From Desulfobacterales bacterium (lineage in GTDB: Bacteria > Desulfobacterota > Desulfobacteria > Desulfobacterales > JANQIE01), in contig JANQIE010000180.1 in NCBI GenBank assembly GCA_028282295.1, positions 4,854 to 68,853 of the forward strand: a stretch of 64,000 bases of DNA, read 5' to 3'. This document shows positions 3,268 to 52,335 of the stretch, one piece after another. The position numbers and the translations under genes were made by a program. The notes under the pieces are model-generated. The model saw nothing but the letters and a program-made list of their open reading frames with translations. It did no database searches and had not been told where the DNA came from. Within the stretch, counting starts at the first letter, position 1; every line of letters starts with the position of its first letter.

Positions 3268-3396
3268 ATATTAAACCGGCAACTAAATATGTAAGCCGTC
3301 GTCATGCCGGACTTGATCCGGTATCCAGAATTGACGCTTGATTCCGGCGCTCGCCGGAATCACAATTTTAAAGGTATTTTATTGCCGGGTTAATAT
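3268..3396. mobile_element. 129-bp MITE-like element, family E, copy 1
   Basis: Terminal inverted repeats ATATTAAACCGGCAA / TTGCCGGGTTAATAT. About 95 percent identical by eye alignment to the reverse complement of 48380-48508. Internal hairpins GTCATGCCGGACTTGATCCGG and GATTCCGGCGCTCGCCGGAATC. Confidence 0.75.
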
Positions 3397-43036: not shown

Positions 43037-45973
43037 TCAAACCACCAATTTCTGCCGCACCTTCTTCAGATAAATCACCGCCGGCTTGGTGTTCAGATAC
43101 CCCATGATCTGATACGCCCGCGGGTCGTCGAACAGTTGGCGCACGCGGCTGCCGGGGTCCATCAGGTTGCCGAAGACCAGCGCGTCGGTGGGGCAGGTCT
43201 GCACGCAGGCCGGGATGATCTCGCCCTCGCGGATCTTGCGGTTTTCATTTTTAGCGATATCGTGCGCCTGTTTGATGCGCTGGATGCAAAAGGAGCATTT
43301 CTCCATGACACCCTTGCTGCGGGCCGTGACCTCCGGGTTGATCTGCAAATGGGCGGGCGACGGCCACTGCGGCGCGTACCAGTTGAACCGCCGGACTTTG
43401 TACGGGCAGTTCTGGGCGCAAAAGCGGGTGCCGATGCACCGGTTGTAAATCTGGTTGTTCAATCCCTCCTTGGAATGGTGGGGGGCGTACACCGGGCAAA
43501 CCGACTCACAGGGCGCGTTGTTGCAGTGCTGGCACATGAGCGGCAAAAAAGTGATGTTGCGTTCATCGTCCTGGTCCAGGTAGCGCTCGATGCTGATCCA
43601 GGACATCTCCCGGCCTTCCAGAATCCGCTCTTCCTGCACTACACTTAAATTGTTCTCCGCGTAACAGGCCGCCGAGCACGCCCCGCAGCCGATGCAGCGA
43701 TCCATGTCCACAGCCATGGACCAGCGGTAATCGATATGTTCATGGGCCGGGTAGAAGTCCCGTTCCCTGGGGCTGTACCCTTCGGGCAGCGGCAGGACCT
43801 TGGGAAAGTCGTGCATGGTCAGGCCGGGTTTGACCTTGGGCAGCCCCCGAGCCAGCTTCTCGCGGTCGACGGTCAGCGCAATTTTGCGGCCGTGCATCAC
43901 GCGGCTGCTGGCGGTTTGGGCCAGTTGCAAACTGTGCCCGGCGGCTTTGATGCTGACTTTGCCGATGCTGAACTGCGGTGCGCCGGCGGCGCTCCCGGCG
44001 GCCGTCGGCAGCAAGGCCAGCGGATTCGCACCGTTTTGAGCGGCGTAGCGGCCGTAGGCCGTGTGGCCCTGGCCCTGATGGAGCACCAGGACGCCCGGCC
44101 TGATGCCAACTGTTTCATACACCGGCGCCTGCACCTTGCCGTGGGGCGATTCGATCTGAATCACATCGCCCTCTTCGACCCCATACCGGCCGGCATCTTC
44201 CGGGTGCATCCAGACCGGCGACTGCCAGGCCACCCGAGTGGTCGGGTCCGGGATTTCGTTCAACCACGACCGGTTGGCGCCGCGCCCGTCGAAAAAGCGA
44301 ATCGACGGTGCCGCCACCAGCAGCGGTTCGGTGGGTGGGGTTTTGCTTTGGGTCAACGCCGACGGAATCCGGCGTGGCAGGTTTAATGCGGGCTGCTGCA
44401 TTGGCGCGGGCGGCTGGAAGTGTCCGCCGTCTTTGATGATAGCGATCCAGTCGCGTTCGGATTTGAGACGGCCCTGTTGCTCCAGTTGGGCCGATATGTA
44501 GGCTTTAAACTGATTCAACGGCCAGCGGCCTTTAAAAGCCAGCCGCAGGAACAGGTCGCCCAGGTCCGGGGCTTCGGTGAATTTGCCCATGGCCGGTTGC
44601 AGCGTGGACACCAGACCGGTCTGGCCGTTGTAATCATCCCAGGATTCCAGCGGCAGCTTGACCGGCAGGATCAGATCGGCCAGGGCGGTGGTTTCATCTT
44701 CAAAATTGCTCAGGGCCACCACGAACAGGTCCGGGTTTTTGAGCGCTTGTGTAATGGCCGGGTTGGCCGGCATGGCGAACACCGGATTGACATTGTTCAG
44801 CAGCAGCACGCGGGCCGGTGTGCTGCGCAGGTTTTCAAAAAATGCGATTACTTCGGCGCGCGTGGCGGCTTGCTCCACCCGATGCCGGTTTTGAAAATCG
44901 ATGCGCGTCAGCTTGGGATCGAGCACGAGGTTGAGCAGATTGGCCGCCATGTCGGTGGCCAACCCGTTGACCGCGCCGTTTTCCGCGCCCAGGATTAACG
45001 GCTTGCGGGCCGCTAGCATGCGGTCGGCCAGGGCGGTCAGATCTTCGCGGGTCAGACCGCTTTGACGGACAGCCTGCTCCTCGGTGATCCCGGCGGCAAA
45101 CGTGGCCAGGGCCCCGCGCAACGCGCTTGGCAGGGGTTGCCCCCGGCCGGCGTTCAGCGCCCGTCCGATCAGGTAGCCGGCCACGGCCGCCTGACAGCCC
45201 GGCCGGCAGGCCAACCAGCGGTCCGCGTTGGCGGCGGTAAGCGACTGGTAGGGGCCGACGTGCACAAACAAGCCCTTGCGCCCGTTGGCCAGCGCGTGCA
45301 TGGCCTTGAATTGGCGGGCATATTCAACCGGCGACAACCAGGTTTCCAAAAAATCGGCCCCCAGGCAGATCAGGCAATCGGCCTGATCGATGCGATAGCC
45401 CGGCAGTCCATCCAGGCCGAAAATGGCGCGGTTGGCCGCTTTCAGGGTTTCATAGGCAAAGGGTTCAAAAAAGACGGGCGGCCCGGATTGCCACGTCTGC
45501 AAGGCTTCGGTGAACAAGGCCGTGCGGCTCGGACCCGACACCTCTGAAAGCATCCGCACCGGGTTGGCATCGGTTGCGGCGACTCCCTGAAGTTTGGCCC
45601 GGAGCAGTTTTTCGGCGTCGTCAAAAGAGACCGGTTGCCACCGGCCGTCCTGCCTGAGCCGGGGCGTCATGAGCCGATCCGGGTTGTAGACCGCCTGCAG
45701 GGCTGCCTGACCGCGCAGGCAGAGCTTGCCGCGGTTGATTGGATGCAAGGGATTGCCTTCCAGCTTTATCACGCGACCCTCGCGGTTTTTGGCCAAAACA
45801 CCGCAACCGGCCGGGCATTCGCGGCAGGTGGCGGCATACCAGGTCGCTTGACCGGTGACCATGTCGTCCGGGGCTTGAACCAGACTGTAAAGGGTTTTGT
45901 CGGGTTTGCCACAACCCGAGGCAAAGGCGAAACTGCCCATACCGGCAATCTTGAGGAAGGTGCGCCGATTCAT
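43037..45973 (-). CDS. actB: ACIII subunit ActB (molybdopterin-oxidoreductase-like domain fused to 4Fe-4S ferredoxin domain)
   Basis: Tat signal MNRRTFLKIAGMGSFAFASGC. N-terminal CRECPAGCG...C Fe-S motif. C-terminal CIGCGACSAAC, CQHCNNAPC and CIGTRFCAQNCP cluster motifs. 978 aa. Confidence 0.85.
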   Translation of the reverse strand: MNRRTFLKIAGMGSFAFASGCGKPDKTLYSLVQAPDDMVTGQATWYAATCRECPAGCGVLAKNREGRVIKLEGNPLHPINRGKLCLRGQAALQAVYNPDRLMTPRLRQDGRWQPVSFDDAEKLLRAKLQGVAATDANPVRMLSEVSGPSRTALFTEALQTWQSGPPVFFEPFAYETLKAANRAIFGLDGLPGYRIDQADCLICLGADFLETWLSPVEYARQFKAMHALANGRKGLFVHVGPYQSLTAANADRWLACRPGCQAAVAGYLIGRALNAGRGQPLPSALRGALATFAAGITEEQAVRQSGLTREDLTALADRMLAARKPLILGAENGAVNGLATDMAANLLNLVLDPKLTRIDFQNRHRVEQAATRAEVIAFFENLRSTPARVLLLNNVNPVFAMPANPAITQALKNPDLFVVALSNFEDETTALADLILPVKLPLESWDDYNGQTGLVSTLQPAMGKFTEAPDLGDLFLRLAFKGRWPLNQFKAYISAQLEQQGRLKSERDWIAIIKDGGHFQPPAPMQQPALNLPRRIPSALTQSKTPPTEPLLVAAPSIRFFDGRGANRSWLNEIPDPTTRVAWQSPVWMHPEDAGRYGVEEGDVIQIESPHGKVQAPVYETVGIRPGVLVLHQGQGHTAYGRYAAQNGANPLALLPTAAGSAAGAPQFSIGKVSIKAAGHSLQLAQTASSRVMHGRKIALTVDREKLARGLPKVKPGLTMHDFPKVLPLPEGYSPRERDFYPAHEHIDYRWSMAVDMDRCIGCGACSAACYAENNLSVVQEERILEGREMSWISIERYLDQDDERNITFLPLMCQHCNNAPCESVCPVYAPHHSKEGLNNQIYNRCIGTRFCAQNCPYKVRRFNWYAPQWPSPAHLQINPEVTARSKGVMEKCSFCIQRIKQAHDIAKNENRKIREGEIIPACVQTCPTDALVFGNLMDPGSRVRQLFDDPRAYQIMGYLNTKPAVIYLKKVRQKLVV

Positions 45974-46278
45974 AGCGTTTTGAGGCCCTCCGATCTGTCG
46001 CTCTCGCTCCTGTGAGTTAGGGCTGGCAATGTCAAAAATGGGGTCGGTTCAAATTGTTAACGTGAATCTCGTTGCGAGTTGTCAGGTTTGTAAAAAAACG
46101 GATAGTATAAAATATTCGCAATTCCGGCCGAGTATAATCAAAGCCATTTATCCTGTCAAGCTGCATGATACGTTGTGGCAGGGTCGCCGCCTATTTTAAA
46201 TATCGCTTTGTTGACAAGCAGGCCGGGTTGCAATAGCCATGACATTGAAAAACAGGAAAAGGGGGCGGAGGTAGCATT

Positions 46279-46581
46279 ATGCCGTTTGTTCAAGAACCGA
46301 CCGGATACGAAAAAACGATTCTTTCCGATCTTCAGGGGGCGTGGGGTGGCCTGCGCGAATCGATCGTCGAGGCCGCGGGATTTAACAGGTGGGACCGGGC
46401 GTTGTTTCATGTCGATGAGGCGATGAGTTGGGAGGTGGTCCGTAACCTGCGCCTGATGCCGCCGTTGCTGCTGATCATCAAAAATATCTGCACCCAGGGC
46501 AAAGCCCCGGCGGAAGTATTGGCGAATGTCCGGGCTGTTGATGAGATTCTGCATGAAACCTTTGAGAGTTATCCGCTTTGA
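46279..46581 (+). CDS. hypothetical protein (100 aa) adjoining the CRISPR leader
   Basis: GGAGGT SD 6 nt before the ATG. Balanced composition. No motif recognised; the C-terminal RAVDEILH is only loosely HEPN-like (Rx6H). Confidence 0.5.
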   Translation: MPFVQEPTGYEKTILSDLQGAWGGLRESIVEAAGFNRWDRALFHVDEAMSWEVVRNLRLMPPLLLIIKNICTQGKAPAEVLANVRAVDEILHETFESYPL

Positions 46582-46762
46582 ACGCATACGATCGCGTTTA
46601 GGTCCGACCGGACACCATGCTTTTCGGTTGACAAGCCATCCAAATGTGATCACAAAAAGGGCTATGAAAATGCATTGCCGCTGCCGGCCGAAAGTCGCCA
46701 AAAAAGTTGGTAAAATTTGTGCTCTGAAAAAAGCCCTGTGATTTCGGAAAGTTCCAGAAAGA

Positions 46763-47404
46763 GTGTTCCCCGCGCGTGCGGGGATGAACCGTCCTCTTTG
46801 GTAATTTCACCGAGACGGCGTCCGTGTTCCCCGCGCGTGCGGGGATGAACCGCCACAGAGCTATTTAGCGGAGAATCTGCGCACGTGTTCCCCGCGCGTG
46901 CGGGGATGAACCGGGGCGAAAAACCAATTATCGCCAGTTTAATTTAGTGTTCCCCGCGCGTGCGGGGATGAACCGAGCTGCCCCATACCCATCGTCCAAC
47001 GTAACAACGTGTTCCCCGCGCGTGCGGGGATGAACCGGCAGTTCTATCAACATTCCTTTCGGAATATACGTGTTCCCCGCGCGTGCGGGGATGAACCGCC
47101 TGATGGTACGGTGGCGAAAATGACCGCCCGGTGTTCCCCGCGCGTGCGGGGATGAACCGGATTGCTTTAGGCTTTTGCCCGTATGCAGCATGTGTTCCCC
47201 GCGCGTGCGGGGATGAACCGCCCTTGGGTTCGGAACCAAACGAAATGGTCAACGTGTTCCCCGCGCGTGCGGGGATGAACCGGTTGCGTAACGTGCCCGG
47301 AAAAATCGAGGAAAGTGTTCCCCGCGCGTGCGGGGATGAACCGGAGTCGGGGCAGGAAAAAAATGGGAGGGCCCCATGTTCCCTACACGCGTGGGGATAA
47401 CGCG
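46763..47404 (+). CRISPR. type I-E-like CRISPR array: 11 repeats of 29 bp and 10 spacers of 32-33 bp
   Basis: Repeat GTGTTCCCCGCGCGTGCGGGGATGAACCG starts at 46763, 46824, 46885, 46947, 47009, 47070, 47131, 47192, 47254 and 47315. A degenerate last repeat ATGTTCCCTACACGCGTGGGGATAACGCG lies at 47376-47404, so the leader should be on the 46.6-46.76 kb side. Confidence 0.95.
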
Positions 47405-47568
47405 TGCAGGCGCCTTTGGCAGCTCGCCTGTGGACTGTGGGGGAGAATTTTTTGCTTCACACGCAGGGTGCGGCGTGCGTGAAGATTTGGTAGTATTTTA
47501 CCCTCTGCGGACCCTGCGCCAGTGCGTGAAACTAGCCGGTTTTTATACTCAACGCCATTAACCTGAGA

Positions 47569-47643
47569 CTGTAGGAGCGGCGTCTGGCCGTGATTAGAGC
47601 GACATGATCGCACTATAATCGCGGCGGGACGCCGCTCCTGCAA
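47569..47643. repeat. REP-like imperfect palindrome
   Basis: CTGTAGGAGCGGCGTCTGGCCGTGATT ... AATCGCGGCGGGACGCCGCTCCTGCAA. Confidence 0.6.
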
Positions 47644-47724
47644 TGGGACTGGCCGTCTGAGTGGCGTAGGTTAATAAAATGGCGTTTCTACTTGCGGAGT
47701 TTCAGGCGCGGCATAAATACAATC

Positions 47725-48348
47725 TTATTTTGATTCGCCACCGCACAACTTCGCCGTGATCTCAGCCACATGCCGGCCCTGGAAGCGGGCTCCTTCCAAC
47801 TCGTTGGTGCTCGGCATCCGTTCACCGGTACCGCCGGCGATGGTCGAGGCGCCGTAGGGGGAGCCGCCGGTGATCTCATCCATGCTCATCTGGCCCTGAA
47901 ACGCATAGGGCAGGCCCACGATTACAAAACCGTGATGCAGCAACGTGATGTGAAACGACAGGATGGTCGACTCCTGGCCGCCGTGCTGAGTGGCGCTGCA
48001 GGTGAACACGCTGCCGACCTTGCCCACCAGGGCGCCCTGGGCCCAGAGTTGGCCGGTGGCATCCAGAAACTGGCGCATCTGGCCGCACATGTTGCCGAAG
48101 CGGGTGGGGGTGCCGAAGATGACCGCGTCGGCCGCGGCCAGTTCGTCCACGGTGGCGACCGGCACGTGGGCCATGCTTTTCTGAGCATCCACCGCCCCCA
48201 TTTTCTGCAAGACTTCGTCAGGGAGCGTCTCCGGGACCCGGCGTAACACGGTTTCGGCCCCTGCTGCGGTTCGCGCGCCTTCGGCAATGGCTTCCGCCAT
48301 CTTGTGAACGTGCCCATAGGTAGAATAATAGACAATCAATATCTTCAT
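47725..48348 (-). CDS. wrbA: NAD(P)H:quinone oxidoreductase WrbA (flavodoxin-like)
   Basis: [24 protein letters not shown]... and GSPYGAST are typical of WrbA. Start trimmed to ATG 48348 after AAGGAGA. The longer track ORF starts inside a MITE. Confidence 0.85.
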
Positions 48349-48379
48349 GGTGGTGTTCTCCTTTTCAATCGGATTTTTA

Positions 48380-48508
48380 GTATTAACCCGGCAATAAAAT
48401 ACCTTTAAAATTGTGATTCCGGCGAGCGCCGGAATCAAGCGCCAATTCTGGATGCCGGATCAAGTCCGGCATGACCAAGGCTTACATATTTAGTCGCCGG
48501 TTCAATAT
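48380..48508. mobile_element. 129-bp MITE-like element, family E, copy 2 (inverted relative to copy 1)
   Basis: About 95 percent identical to the reverse complement of 3268-3396. Begins 32 nt upstream of the wrbA ATG. Confidence 0.75.
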
Positions 48509-48784
48509 TACCCGAATAATAAGAACACTTGGGACCGTTTGCCAATTCAGAGCCATGTATTTTTTTTGATTAAGACCGCGCAACGCCGATCTCACAAGCA
48601 ATCCATTATTTCCGGCCGGGCATTCCCAAATTTCAAATTTAATGTCATTAGCGTAAGCCGTCTAATGCAATAACAACGGCTCGCAAGAAATTATTTTTTG
48701 CACAAGCCCCAAGGAGATTTGTGAAATACACTTACGTTGCGGCGAGCCGCCGGAACAGGCAATTTGCGCATTTGGGAACATTTC

Positions 48785-48811
48785 CTGGATTCCCGCCTGC
48801 GCGGGAATGAC
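48785..48811. repeat. family C unit (inverted)
   Basis: CTGGATTCCCGCCTGCGCGGGAATGAC. Confidence 0.7.
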
Positions 48812-48901
48812 GAAGTAGGTTCTGCTCACACGGCTATGGGTTAAGGCCCTGCGCCACATCCTTCAAATTTCAAATTTCCAGTTTCAAACTTCCAGTTTTC
48901 C

Positions 48902-50227
48902 CTACAACAGATTGATCGCCAACTCGGACAGTTCACTGCGTTCGCCTTTTTCCAGGTTGATGTGGGCGCAGATCCGCTGGTCTTTCATTTTTTCGATCAG
49001 ATGGCTCAACCCGTTGGACTGGCTGTCCAGGTACGGATGGTCGATCTGATAAATATCGCCGGTGAAAATGATTTTGGTACCCTCACCGGCCCGGGTGATG
49101 ATGGTCTTGACTTCATGGGGCGTCAGGTTCTGGGCCTCGTCCACAATGAAGTAGATTTTCACCAGACTGCGGCCACGGATGTAGGAAAGCGGCGTGATGA
49201 CGATCTTTTCTTCCTCGATCATTTCGGTGATCTTGCGGCCGTTGCCGTTACCATTGGGGCAATGCTCCTGGATCACCGCCAGGTTGTCGTACAGCGGCTG
49301 CATGTAAGGATCGAGCTTCGACTGAATGTCTCCCGGCAGATAGCCGGTGTCCTTGTTGCTCAGCGGTACGGTGGGCCGTGCGATGAAAATCTGGCGGTAA
49401 TGGCGTTTGCGCTCTAGGGCGCCGGCCAGGGCCAGAAGGGTTTTGCCGGTGCCGGCCTTGCCGGACAGGGTGACCAGGGGAATGTTCGGGTTGGTCAGTG
49501 CGTCCAGAGCAAACGCCTGTTCGGCGTTGCGGGGCATGACGCCGTAGCAGGGCGTTTTCTCCACCCGCCGGATCACGCGGGTAAACCCGTCGTAGTTGGC
49601 CAGGGCCGATTTTTTACCGTTGCGCAGGATCAGAAATTCATTGGGCAACAGGTGGTTGTCGAATTGCAGCGCATCCGCGCGGATTTCATTGGGGTAGGTA
49701 TAGAACCGGTCGATGATTTCGCTGTCGATGTTGTTTTCAATTCGGGCGCCCTTGTAGAGCTGAGCGATGTTCTTGACATGGTCGGAAGTATAGTCCGCGG
49801 CCAGCAAACCGACCGCCTTGGCTTTCATGCGCAGGTTGACGTCCTTGGTCACCAGGATGATCTGGCGGTCGGGATATTGCTCGGCCTGATAAAAGGCGAT
49901 GTTCAAGATGTGGTGATCCGGTTTGTCGGCCGTGAAGTTGCTTCTGAGTTTGGGGTGGAACTCTTTTTCGAGTTTAACCGATATCTTGCCCTTTCCGGGC
50001 CCGATGGCGATCCCGCCGTTGAAGATTTTGTCCGAACTGAGGGTGTCCAGGTCGCGCAGGAACTTGCGGGCGTGAATGTTCAGGGTCCCTTTTCCTTTTT
50101 TGAACTGGTCCAACTCTTCGATGACAATGATCGGCACAATCACGTCATGTTCTTCAAATTGGTAGATGCATGCGCTGTCGTGCAGGATAACATTGGTGTC
50201 CAGGACAAAGATTTTTTTATTTGTCAT
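48902..50227 (-). CDS. PhoH2-type protein: N-terminal PIN domain fused to PhoH ATPase
   Basis: IFVLDTNVILHD...VIEELD (PIN acidic residues). Walker A GKAGTGKT. PhoH-like C-terminus. Start trimmed to ATG 50227 because the longer ORF begins inside a MITE. Confidence 0.85.
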   Translation of the reverse strand: MTNKKIFVLDTNVILHDSACIYQFEEHDVIVPIIVIEELDQFKKGKGTLNIHARKFLRDLDTLSSDKIFNGGIAIGPGKGKISVKLEKEFHPKLRSNFTADKPDHHILNIAFYQAEQYPDRQIILVTKDVNLRMKAKAVGLLAADYTSDHVKNIAQLYKGARIENNIDSEIIDRFYTYPNEIRADALQFDNHLLPNEFLILRNGKKSALANYDGFTRVIRRVEKTPCYGVMPRNAEQAFALDALTNPNIPLVTLSGKAGTGKTLLALAGALERKRHYRQIFIARPTVPLSNKDTGYLPGDIQSKLDPYMQPLYDNLAVIQEHCPNGNGNGRKITEMIEEEKIVITPLSYIRGRSLVKIYFIVDEAQNLTPHEVKTIITRAGEGTKIIFTGDIYQIDHPYLDSQSNGLSHLIEKMKDQRICAHINLEKGERSELSELAINLL

Positions 50228-51342: not shown

Positions 51343-52335
51343 CTAAAGTTGATCGGGGGCCACATAGTGCGCCAACATGCGTTGCGCCTCGGACCGGACC
51401 GTCGCCTGCAATTCTTTCGGCGCCAGGACGCGGGCCTGGGCGCCCCAACGTAAAATCCAATATTTGATTTCATCCAAACCGGCTACCTGGGCTTCGAAGA
51501 TTACCGATCCGTCGTCCTGCGCGGTGATCTGCTGGCTCGGGTGCCAGGTGCGTTCCTTGATGTAGCCGGCCACTGCGGCCGAAAAGCGGATACGGACACG
51601 TACGTCTTCACCCTGGAAGATGCCGAAGCTTTTCGCCAGCATGTCTTCGGGCGAAAAATGTTCCGGGATCTCATATTCTTGTTCGGTAATCGTCAGGCTG
51701 CGAATCCGTTGCGGCACAAAGGTGCGTACTTCCTCGCGCAGGCCGCAGTAGGCGATCAGATAAAATATGCCGTTACAAAACCAGAGTTTATACGGCGCTA
51801 CTTTCCGGCGGGTGACCTCGTTGCGGCCCATGCTGTGGTAGTCGATGGTCACCCAGCGCCGATCCAGGATCGCCTGGTTCAGCTCCGCCAGGTAGTTGCC
51901 GGCTTTTAACGGGGCGCCGGTCGACACCCGGCCGACCTGCAGGCTGTTTTCGATCTGCTTCAGGAAGGTCATGTAGTCTTGGGGCAGGGTGGCTTTTAGT
52001 TTTTGAAACAGCGATTCGATGGCTTCATGGAAGAAGGTGTTCTCCAGGGCGCGAAGCAGGCCGCGTCCGAAGTAAAGCGCCATCAGTTCGGTAAGGTTGA
52101 GCGGCAGCGGCATTTGATGCTTGGCCCGGTCTAGGATCAACCAGCGGTTGGCGCCGTCCTCACGTTCGCAGTAGAGCGGAAAACCGGCGAATTCCAGCGC
52201 TTGCAGATCGCGATACACCGATCGCGAGTGACATTCAAGCCGGTCGGCCAGTTCGTTGACGGTGCATCCCCGGTGGGACTGTAACAGGGTCTGGATGATT
52301 TTCCACTGACGTCCAAGTTGATCGCCGCGCGCCAT
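51343..52335 (-). CDS. HTH + WYL domain transcriptional regulator (YafY-like)
   Basis: N-terminal winged HTH (RGCTVNELADRLECHSRSVYRDLQALE). Central WYL-type region (VAPYKLWFCNGIFYLIAYC). AAGGAGA SD 16 nt after the stop of the upstream giant gene. Confidence 0.8.
   Translation of the reverse strand: MARGDQLGRQWKIIQTLLQSHRGCTVNELADRLECHSRSVYRDLQALEFAGFPLYCEREDGANRWLILDRAKHQMPLPLNLTELMALYFGRGLLRALENTFFHEAIESLFQKLKATLPQDYMTFLKQIENSLQVGRVSTGAPLKAGNYLAELNQAILDRRWVTIDYHSMGRNEVTRRKVAPYKLWFCNGIFYLIAYCGLREEVRTFVPQRIRSLTITEQEYEIPEHFSPEDMLAKSFGIFQGEDVRVRIRFSAAVAGYIKERTWHPSQQITAQDDGSVIFEAQVAGLDEIKYWILRWGAQARVLAPKELQATVRSEAQRMLAHYVAPDQL

Follow-up and report, generated by a model that had tools for sequence, protein, structure and literature searches.

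The array and its neighbours

The stretch of DNA analysed here (the window, 64 kb) corresponds to C197:4854-68853, and contig C197, 71 kb long, belongs to a 326-contig draft assembly of 5.46 Mb that is probably metagenome-assembled and is estimated to be 100% complete and 1% contaminated. A CRISPR array occupies positions 46763-47404 of the window (Table 1). On its left lie a short conserved open reading frame and a divergently transcribed molybdopterin-like/FeS fusion gene adjoining genes for NrfD-type and ActD-type subunits; on its right lies wrbA, followed by the gene for a PIN-PhoH protein. No cas gene was detected in the window or elsewhere on the contig, by tblastn included.

Table 1. 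Coordinates of the array locus and of the related loci on contigs C94 and C280; positions given without a contig name refer to the window.
Position	Strand	Feature	Basis or remark
43037-45973	-	978-aa molybdopterin-like/FeS fusion, transcribed away from the array	Best NCBIfam matches QrcB and QrcC
46279-46581	+	Conserved 100-aa ORF, transcribed towards the array	ORF list
46582-46762	+	Leader, intergenic, from the stop of the 100-aa ORF to the first repeat; A/T-rich near the array	Sequence, ORF list
46700-46762	+	Conserved leader-proximal block, the only part common to all three leaders	BLAST, alignment
46708-46712	+	TGGTA	Position -55
46727-46732	+	A-run	Position -36
46759-46762	+	AAGA	Positions -4 to -1, junction
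46763-47343	+	Ten perfect type I-E repeats with nine intervening spacers	Exact match, fold
46763, 46824, 46885, 46947, 47009, 47070, 47131, 47192, 47254, 47315	+	Starts of the perfect repeats	
47344-47375	+	Tenth spacer, the array's oldest, 32 nt	Sequence
47376-47404	+	Degenerate terminal repeat, leader-distal end	Sequence
47725-48438	-	WrbA	NCBIfam, 334 bits (cut-off 141)
C94:9514-18715		I-E operon cas3-cse1-cse2-cas7-cas5-cas6e-cas1-cas2	Open frames, NCBIfam
C94:12769-14421		cse1	
C94:16766-17446		cas6e	
C94:17464-18402		cas1	
C94:18810-19266		Array, 8 identical-type repeats, no degenerate terminal repeat	Exact repeat match
C280:40037-40494		Array, 8 repeats (two with one common variant base, last one degenerate)	Repeat match

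Exact searching of the window with the 29-nt consensus GTGTTCCCCGCGCGTGCGGGGATGAACCG recovered ten mismatch-free copies on the plus strand, and none of 100 shuffles contained a match. The copies start 61-62 nt apart, and the spacers are therefore 32-33 nt long. The eleventh copy, which a consensus search at up to 8 mismatches did not recover, is identical to the consensus at about 20 of the 29 positions as counted by eye. A CRISPR array is generically recognised by three or more direct repeats that are nearly identical, 23-47 nt long and evenly spaced, with unique spacers of similar length between them; with ten perfect repeats, one degenerate repeat and ten unique spacers, the locus is confirmed as a genuine CRISPR array.

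Type I-E repeats are 29 nt long and form a GC-rich hairpin of 7 bp, followed by a 3' tail of 8 nt (AUxAACCG) that gives rise to the 5' handle of the crRNA. The RNA of the window repeat folds (-14.4 kcal/mol) into a GC-rich stem of 7 bp that is closed by a tetraloop and followed by a 3' tail of 8 nt, AUGAACCG; moreover, 25 of its 29 positions are identical to those of the type I-E repeat from E. coli K-12, the hairpin of which is also alike. Fold and match together identify the repeat as type I-E. A scan of positions 45000-49000 against Rfam at the gathering threshold returned no family match. The leader is placed on the left and transcription on the plus strand, because the degenerate repeat is at the right end, the left flank is rich in A and T, and the plus strand shows the repeat in its canonical I-E orientation.

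These results agree with what had been proposed in a sequence-only reading of the window, namely eleven 29-bp repeats separated by ten unique 32-33-bp spacers, degeneracy confined to the last repeat, a stem-bearing I-E-like repeat close to the E. coli form, and a leader at roughly 46.58-46.76 kb with plus-strand transcription. The neighbours named there (a 100-aa ORF, a divergent respiratory gene and wrbA) are supported by positions and profile matches, and the absence of cas genes that it reported for the 64 kb extends to the whole contig.

The 100-aa ORF was considered as a CRISPR accessory gene standing in place of cas2. This candidate was rejected, since the ORF has more than 1,300 homologues, nearly all of them exactly 100 aa long and 70-78% identical, since in two order-level relatives the homologue has different neighbours and no array beside it, and since the ORF does not resemble the one that precedes the array on C280. 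The few named homologues are from Desulfobacterales or "Deltaproteobacteria"; no Pfam family was matched by the ORF. About 3.9 kb downstream of the array, beyond wrbA, the PIN-PhoH gene and another ORF, a gene for an HTH-WYL-WCX regulator is located on the minus strand (51343-52335). WYL proteins are sometimes regulators linked to CRISPR.

The cas operon and the sister arrays

A complete type I-E cas operon is present on another contig of the assembly, C94, where it ends about 95 nt upstream of an array with the same repeat as that of the window. All eight cas genes exceed the curated NCBIfam cut-offs for type I-E (cas3 through the helicase-core and HD-domain models), and each was found by tblastn to be single-copy in the genome. 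The alignment of Cas1 with its E. coli counterpart spans the entire protein (E=4e-151) and shows the Glu, His and Asp positions to be conserved, and a histidine of Cas6e aligns with the "LYQLH" motif of E. coli CasE; these are presumably the catalytic residues of the two enzymes. Cas6e matches CasE with E=3e-15 only, and Cse1 falls far short of the E. coli-type model, from which it follows that the adaptation module is far more similar to that of E. coli than the effector module is.

Directly at the start of the operon, overlapping cas3 by 20 nt, a gene on the plus strand (C94:8931-9533) encodes a stand-alone 200-aa 3'-5' exonuclease of the DEDDh/DnaQ family, which may be a cas-linked prespacer-trimming enzyme. 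For comparison, some I-E systems carry Cas2-DnaQ fusions.

A third array, again with the same repeat, was found on contig C280. A generic periodic k-mer scan of the whole assembly gave no further CRISPR arrays beyond those of C94, C197 and C280; the other periodic clusters were rejected as plain tandem repeats. As judged from these sequences, the genome apparently contains one intact I-E system with three arrays.

A fourth array was suspected from repeat matches with 7-8 mismatches (GTGATTCCGGCG...) and was rejected, as these matches represent the core of a dispersed MITE-like element. This element, about 129 nt long and bounded by terminal inverted repeats, is present in the window at 48380-48508 (plus strand), and its core, a 29-nt palindrome (GTGATTCCGGCGAGCGCCGGAATCAAGCG), is also found at about 3335-3363 (minus strand). 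The resemblance of the core to a I-E repeat is superficial and consists in the length of 29 nt, an initial GTG, hairpin formation and a tail reading AAGCG. At up to 3 mismatches the genome holds 116 copies of the element, and since for 42 of the 116 a contig end is no more than 100 nt away, it is probably responsible for much of the fragmentation of the assembly. Each of the three CRISPR arrays has a further dispersed repeat no more than a few hundred bases away: those at window 47539-47675, C94:19267-19360 and C280:39610-39795 belong to families with 35, 203 and 835 BLAST matches in the genome. The one on C94 begins directly after the last CRISPR repeat and, because it abuts that repeat and a degenerate terminal repeat is lacking, the C94 array may have been truncated by insertion.

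Leaders, spacers and distribution of the repeat

The leaders of the window and C94 arrays are 79% identical over exactly the last 63 nt before the first repeat, and BLAST detected no homology between them further upstream; in the C280 leader the block is kept but more diverged, as seen by alignment. All three leaders have YGGTR from -55, AAAA from -36 and AAGA at the junction, and in the CRISPR-I leader of E. coli K-12 the same motifs are located at -55 and -35, the junction reading TAGA. Among the leaders of other species with the identical repeat, YGGTR is found at -56 or -55 in 10 of 11. Overall it is found there in 13 of 15 leaders, as against a mean of 0.3 and a maximum of 5 in mononucleotide shuffles, a comparison that overstates the significance because the motif was defined after the data had been viewed; several of the 15 leaders come from the same genomes, and two are probably not true leaders.

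In E. coli, spacers are no longer integrated once positions -53 to -50 (GTGG), known as the "integrase anchoring site", have been mutated, and IHF bends the DNA between this site and the junction (PMC5224486). The anchoring tetranucleotide is half conserved here, reading GTAA in the window and C280 leaders and GTAG in that of C94. An IHF consensus was not found in the window leader, and none of the five HU/IHF-family genes in the genome reaches the IHF equivalog cut-offs. Nor did a simple scan of the window leader find a sigma-70-like promoter, although such a scan is too simple to count against transcription. Conservation of a block of about 60 nt, while the sequence upstream has diverged fully, is the outcome to be expected of selection for an integration-competent leader; a recent segmental duplication would not be expected to leave conservation restricted to about 60 nt.

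All ten spacers of the window array are unique, and across the 5.46-Mb assembly they match only themselves, other matches being at most 20 nt long. The 24 spacers compared over the three arrays, a set that excludes the tenth and oldest of the window, are all different, and because the three sets do not overlap, each array seems to have gained its spacers independently. Identical repeats on the leader side, degeneracy at the distal end and 24 of 24 compared spacers being distinct form the pattern expected of polarised acquisition. No compared spacer matches the genome elsewhere, cas genes included, over more than 20 nt, and there is thus no self-targeting; the sequence-only reading had seen no spacer match within the rest of the window, and this now holds genome-wide. 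The G+C content of the spacers is 47.5%, compared with 54.3% for the genome.

Blastn of the whole array against phage and plasmid collections yielded no protospacers: the matches were driven by the repeats and led to other I-E arrays, and the best spacer-only match (32 nt, 87.5%, E=0.7) is not significant. Spacers 1-8, searched with every sixth base open, gave no matches in IMG/VR, and neither spacer 1 nor the leader-junction pattern was matched in JGI metagenome contigs; the latter was also without matches in species-representative genomes. Among sequencing runs, the flanks and spacers of the window were found in one coral-metagenome run only, which is probably the source of the assembly and is thus not independent. 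In the seawater DNA runs and the single metatranscriptome, repeat-like words were seen only next to different spacers and thus represent other organisms.

The exact 29-nt repeat occurs in metagenome-assembled genomes labelled Gemmatimonadales, Rhodospirillaceae, Desulfovibrionaceae, Azospirillaceae and Woeseiaceae, as well as others, and in several other species it is found at two loci or on two contigs. Within the order, none of 40 genomes has the repeat GTGTTCCCCGCGCGTGCGGGGATGAACCG, a single match with three mismatches being present in one of them, and Cas1e exceeds its cut-off in 7 of the 40; the source genome is the sole representative of its family among the genomes compared. This patchy distribution in the order is consistent with horizontal spread of I-E systems, and the occurrence of the identical repeat suggests that the I-E variant carrying it has spread widely between lineages.

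An isolated array, probably served in trans

An orphan array is one in a genome without cognate cas genes, whereas the genome of an isolated array does possess them, but at a distance from the array (PMC13142298). The sequence-only reading had labelled the window array an orphan, and had also suggested that a cas operon elsewhere serves it in trans. The label fails, given the complete operon beside an identical-repeat array on C94, and the case of a genome without any cas locus, which that reading had allowed for as a sign of a decaying relic, does not apply; the operon it had postulated exists. With no cas genes adjoining it and the cognate operon on another contig, the window array is an isolated one. 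Contig C197 extends 51.6 kb on one side of the array and 18.8 kb on the other, and the operon is flanked on both sides by 9.5 kb or more of C94, so the two are separated by at least about 28 kb; in a draft of 326 contigs this distance is a lower bound only.

Very probably the window array is a secondary, isolated array that belongs to the I-E system and relies on it in trans for both crRNA processing and spacer gain. Cas6e processing to crRNAs of about 61 nt and interference with an AAG-type PAM are hallmarks of type I-E. From the complete operon, the repeat identity and the architecture of the leader we infer the following course of events. Transcription of the array would be driven by the leader on the plus strand, and Cas6e encoded on C94 would cleave every repeat on the 3' side of the hairpin base, giving crRNAs of 61-62 nt with AUGAACCG as the 5' handle and the hairpin at the 3' end. 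These crRNAs would be loaded into Cascade (Cse1, Cse2, Cas7, Cas5 and Cas6e) and would direct Cas3 to matching invader DNA, while Cas1-Cas2 would continue to extend the array at the junction of leader and first repeat.

The closest known counterpart is CRISPR 2.1 (CRISPR-II) of E. coli, which is of the same subtype and lies apart from the cas-adjacent CRISPR-I (iap-cas2). Acquisition is routinely followed in this cas-distal array (PMC5224486). Both arrays have a 29-nt repeat (25 of 29 positions shared) with the same hairpin and spacers of 32-33 nt. Both are secondary loci that lack neighbouring cas genes, have the repeat and leader architecture of the cas-adjacent array and are served in trans, the present one presumably. 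The near relationship of the two Cas1 proteins and the leader motifs in register with those of K-12 add to the likeness. Unlike E. coli, the host is probably a Desulfobacterales-like bacterium, from a coral metagenome, and its genome has three arrays; GTGG is replaced by GTAA or GTAG, Cse1 and Cas6e are far more divergent than Cas1, and the distance to cas is bounded only from below.

Another comparison is offered by CR3 of Pseudomonas aeruginosa ATCC 10145, an isolated I-F array situated 1.3 Mb from cas, for which interference and primed adaptation have been demonstrated (PMC13142298). The window array likewise lies far from its cognate cas genes and has the same repeat as, and a leader similar to, the cas-adjacent array, but it is of type I-E. 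The leader region of CR3 is 98% identical to that of CR2 over 900 bp, indicating recent duplication or transfer (PMC13142298), whereas only about 63 nt of leader are conserved here, which suggests that the window array separated earlier than CR3 did. Orphan arrays in genomes without cognate cas are exemplified by the I-F CRISPR4 of E. coli with its anti-cas spacers (PMC8616872). The window array resembles these in that no cas genes adjoin it, and differs from them in that the genome contains the complete cognate operon and no spacer matches the cas genes.

Alternatively, the array could be a silent relic that was duplicated or translocated and is now decaying, neither transcribed nor extended. 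The lack of a promoter-like site in the simple leader scan and of protospacers in the collections searched would fit such a relic, but 10 of its 11 repeats agree with those of the cas-adjacent array without a single mismatch, the part of the leader that integration would require has been kept amid complete upstream divergence, which indicates selection, and the non-overlapping spacer sets speak for independent spacer gain in each array; a relic is accordingly considered unlikely. It is similarly improbable that the two isolated arrays were seeded or relocated by the MITE-like elements, abundant in the genome, that lie beside all three arrays, within a mosaic system composed of E. coli-like adaptation, a divergent effector and a cas3-linked DEDDh exonuclease for prespacer trimming; if this were true, the lineage would provide a natural case of array dispersal by MITEs.

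The array would be a true orphan if the cas-bearing contig had been misbinned from another organism of the same metagenome. Misbinning is conceivable because the exact repeat occurs in metagenome-assembled genomes of many unrelated lineages; the assembly consists of many contigs, and in the likely source sample the same repeat occurs, at different depths, in further repeat-spacer units. On the other side, dispersed MITE-like families present in more than 100 contigs of the assembly are common to C94, C197 and C280, and the leaders of the three arrays are specifically related to one another, so that an artefact of binning is unlikely. Since, in addition, the estimated contamination is low and the leader-junction pattern was met with in no other genome or metagenome contig searched, a true orphan is judged to be highly improbable. 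A role outside defence, such as regulation of host genes by crRNAs that target the host genome, was raised only on account of the housekeeping-gene setting; given that no spacer finds a longer match elsewhere in the genome, it can be accorded next to no credence.

The array in the window, very probably an isolated part of a system operating in trans, is a further instance of a well-known arrangement and not an oddity, isolated secondary I-E arrays being commonplace. Its annotation should accordingly drop the orphan label and list it among the three arrays of what is apparently one intact type I-E system in an uncultured bacterium. The conserved leader block of about 60 nt, which is in register with the experimentally dissected leader of E. 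coli, would extend that architecture to distant lineages. The 24 compared spacers, together with the tenth spacer of the window, could connect this host with the viruses infecting it as soon as viromes of the same habitat exist.
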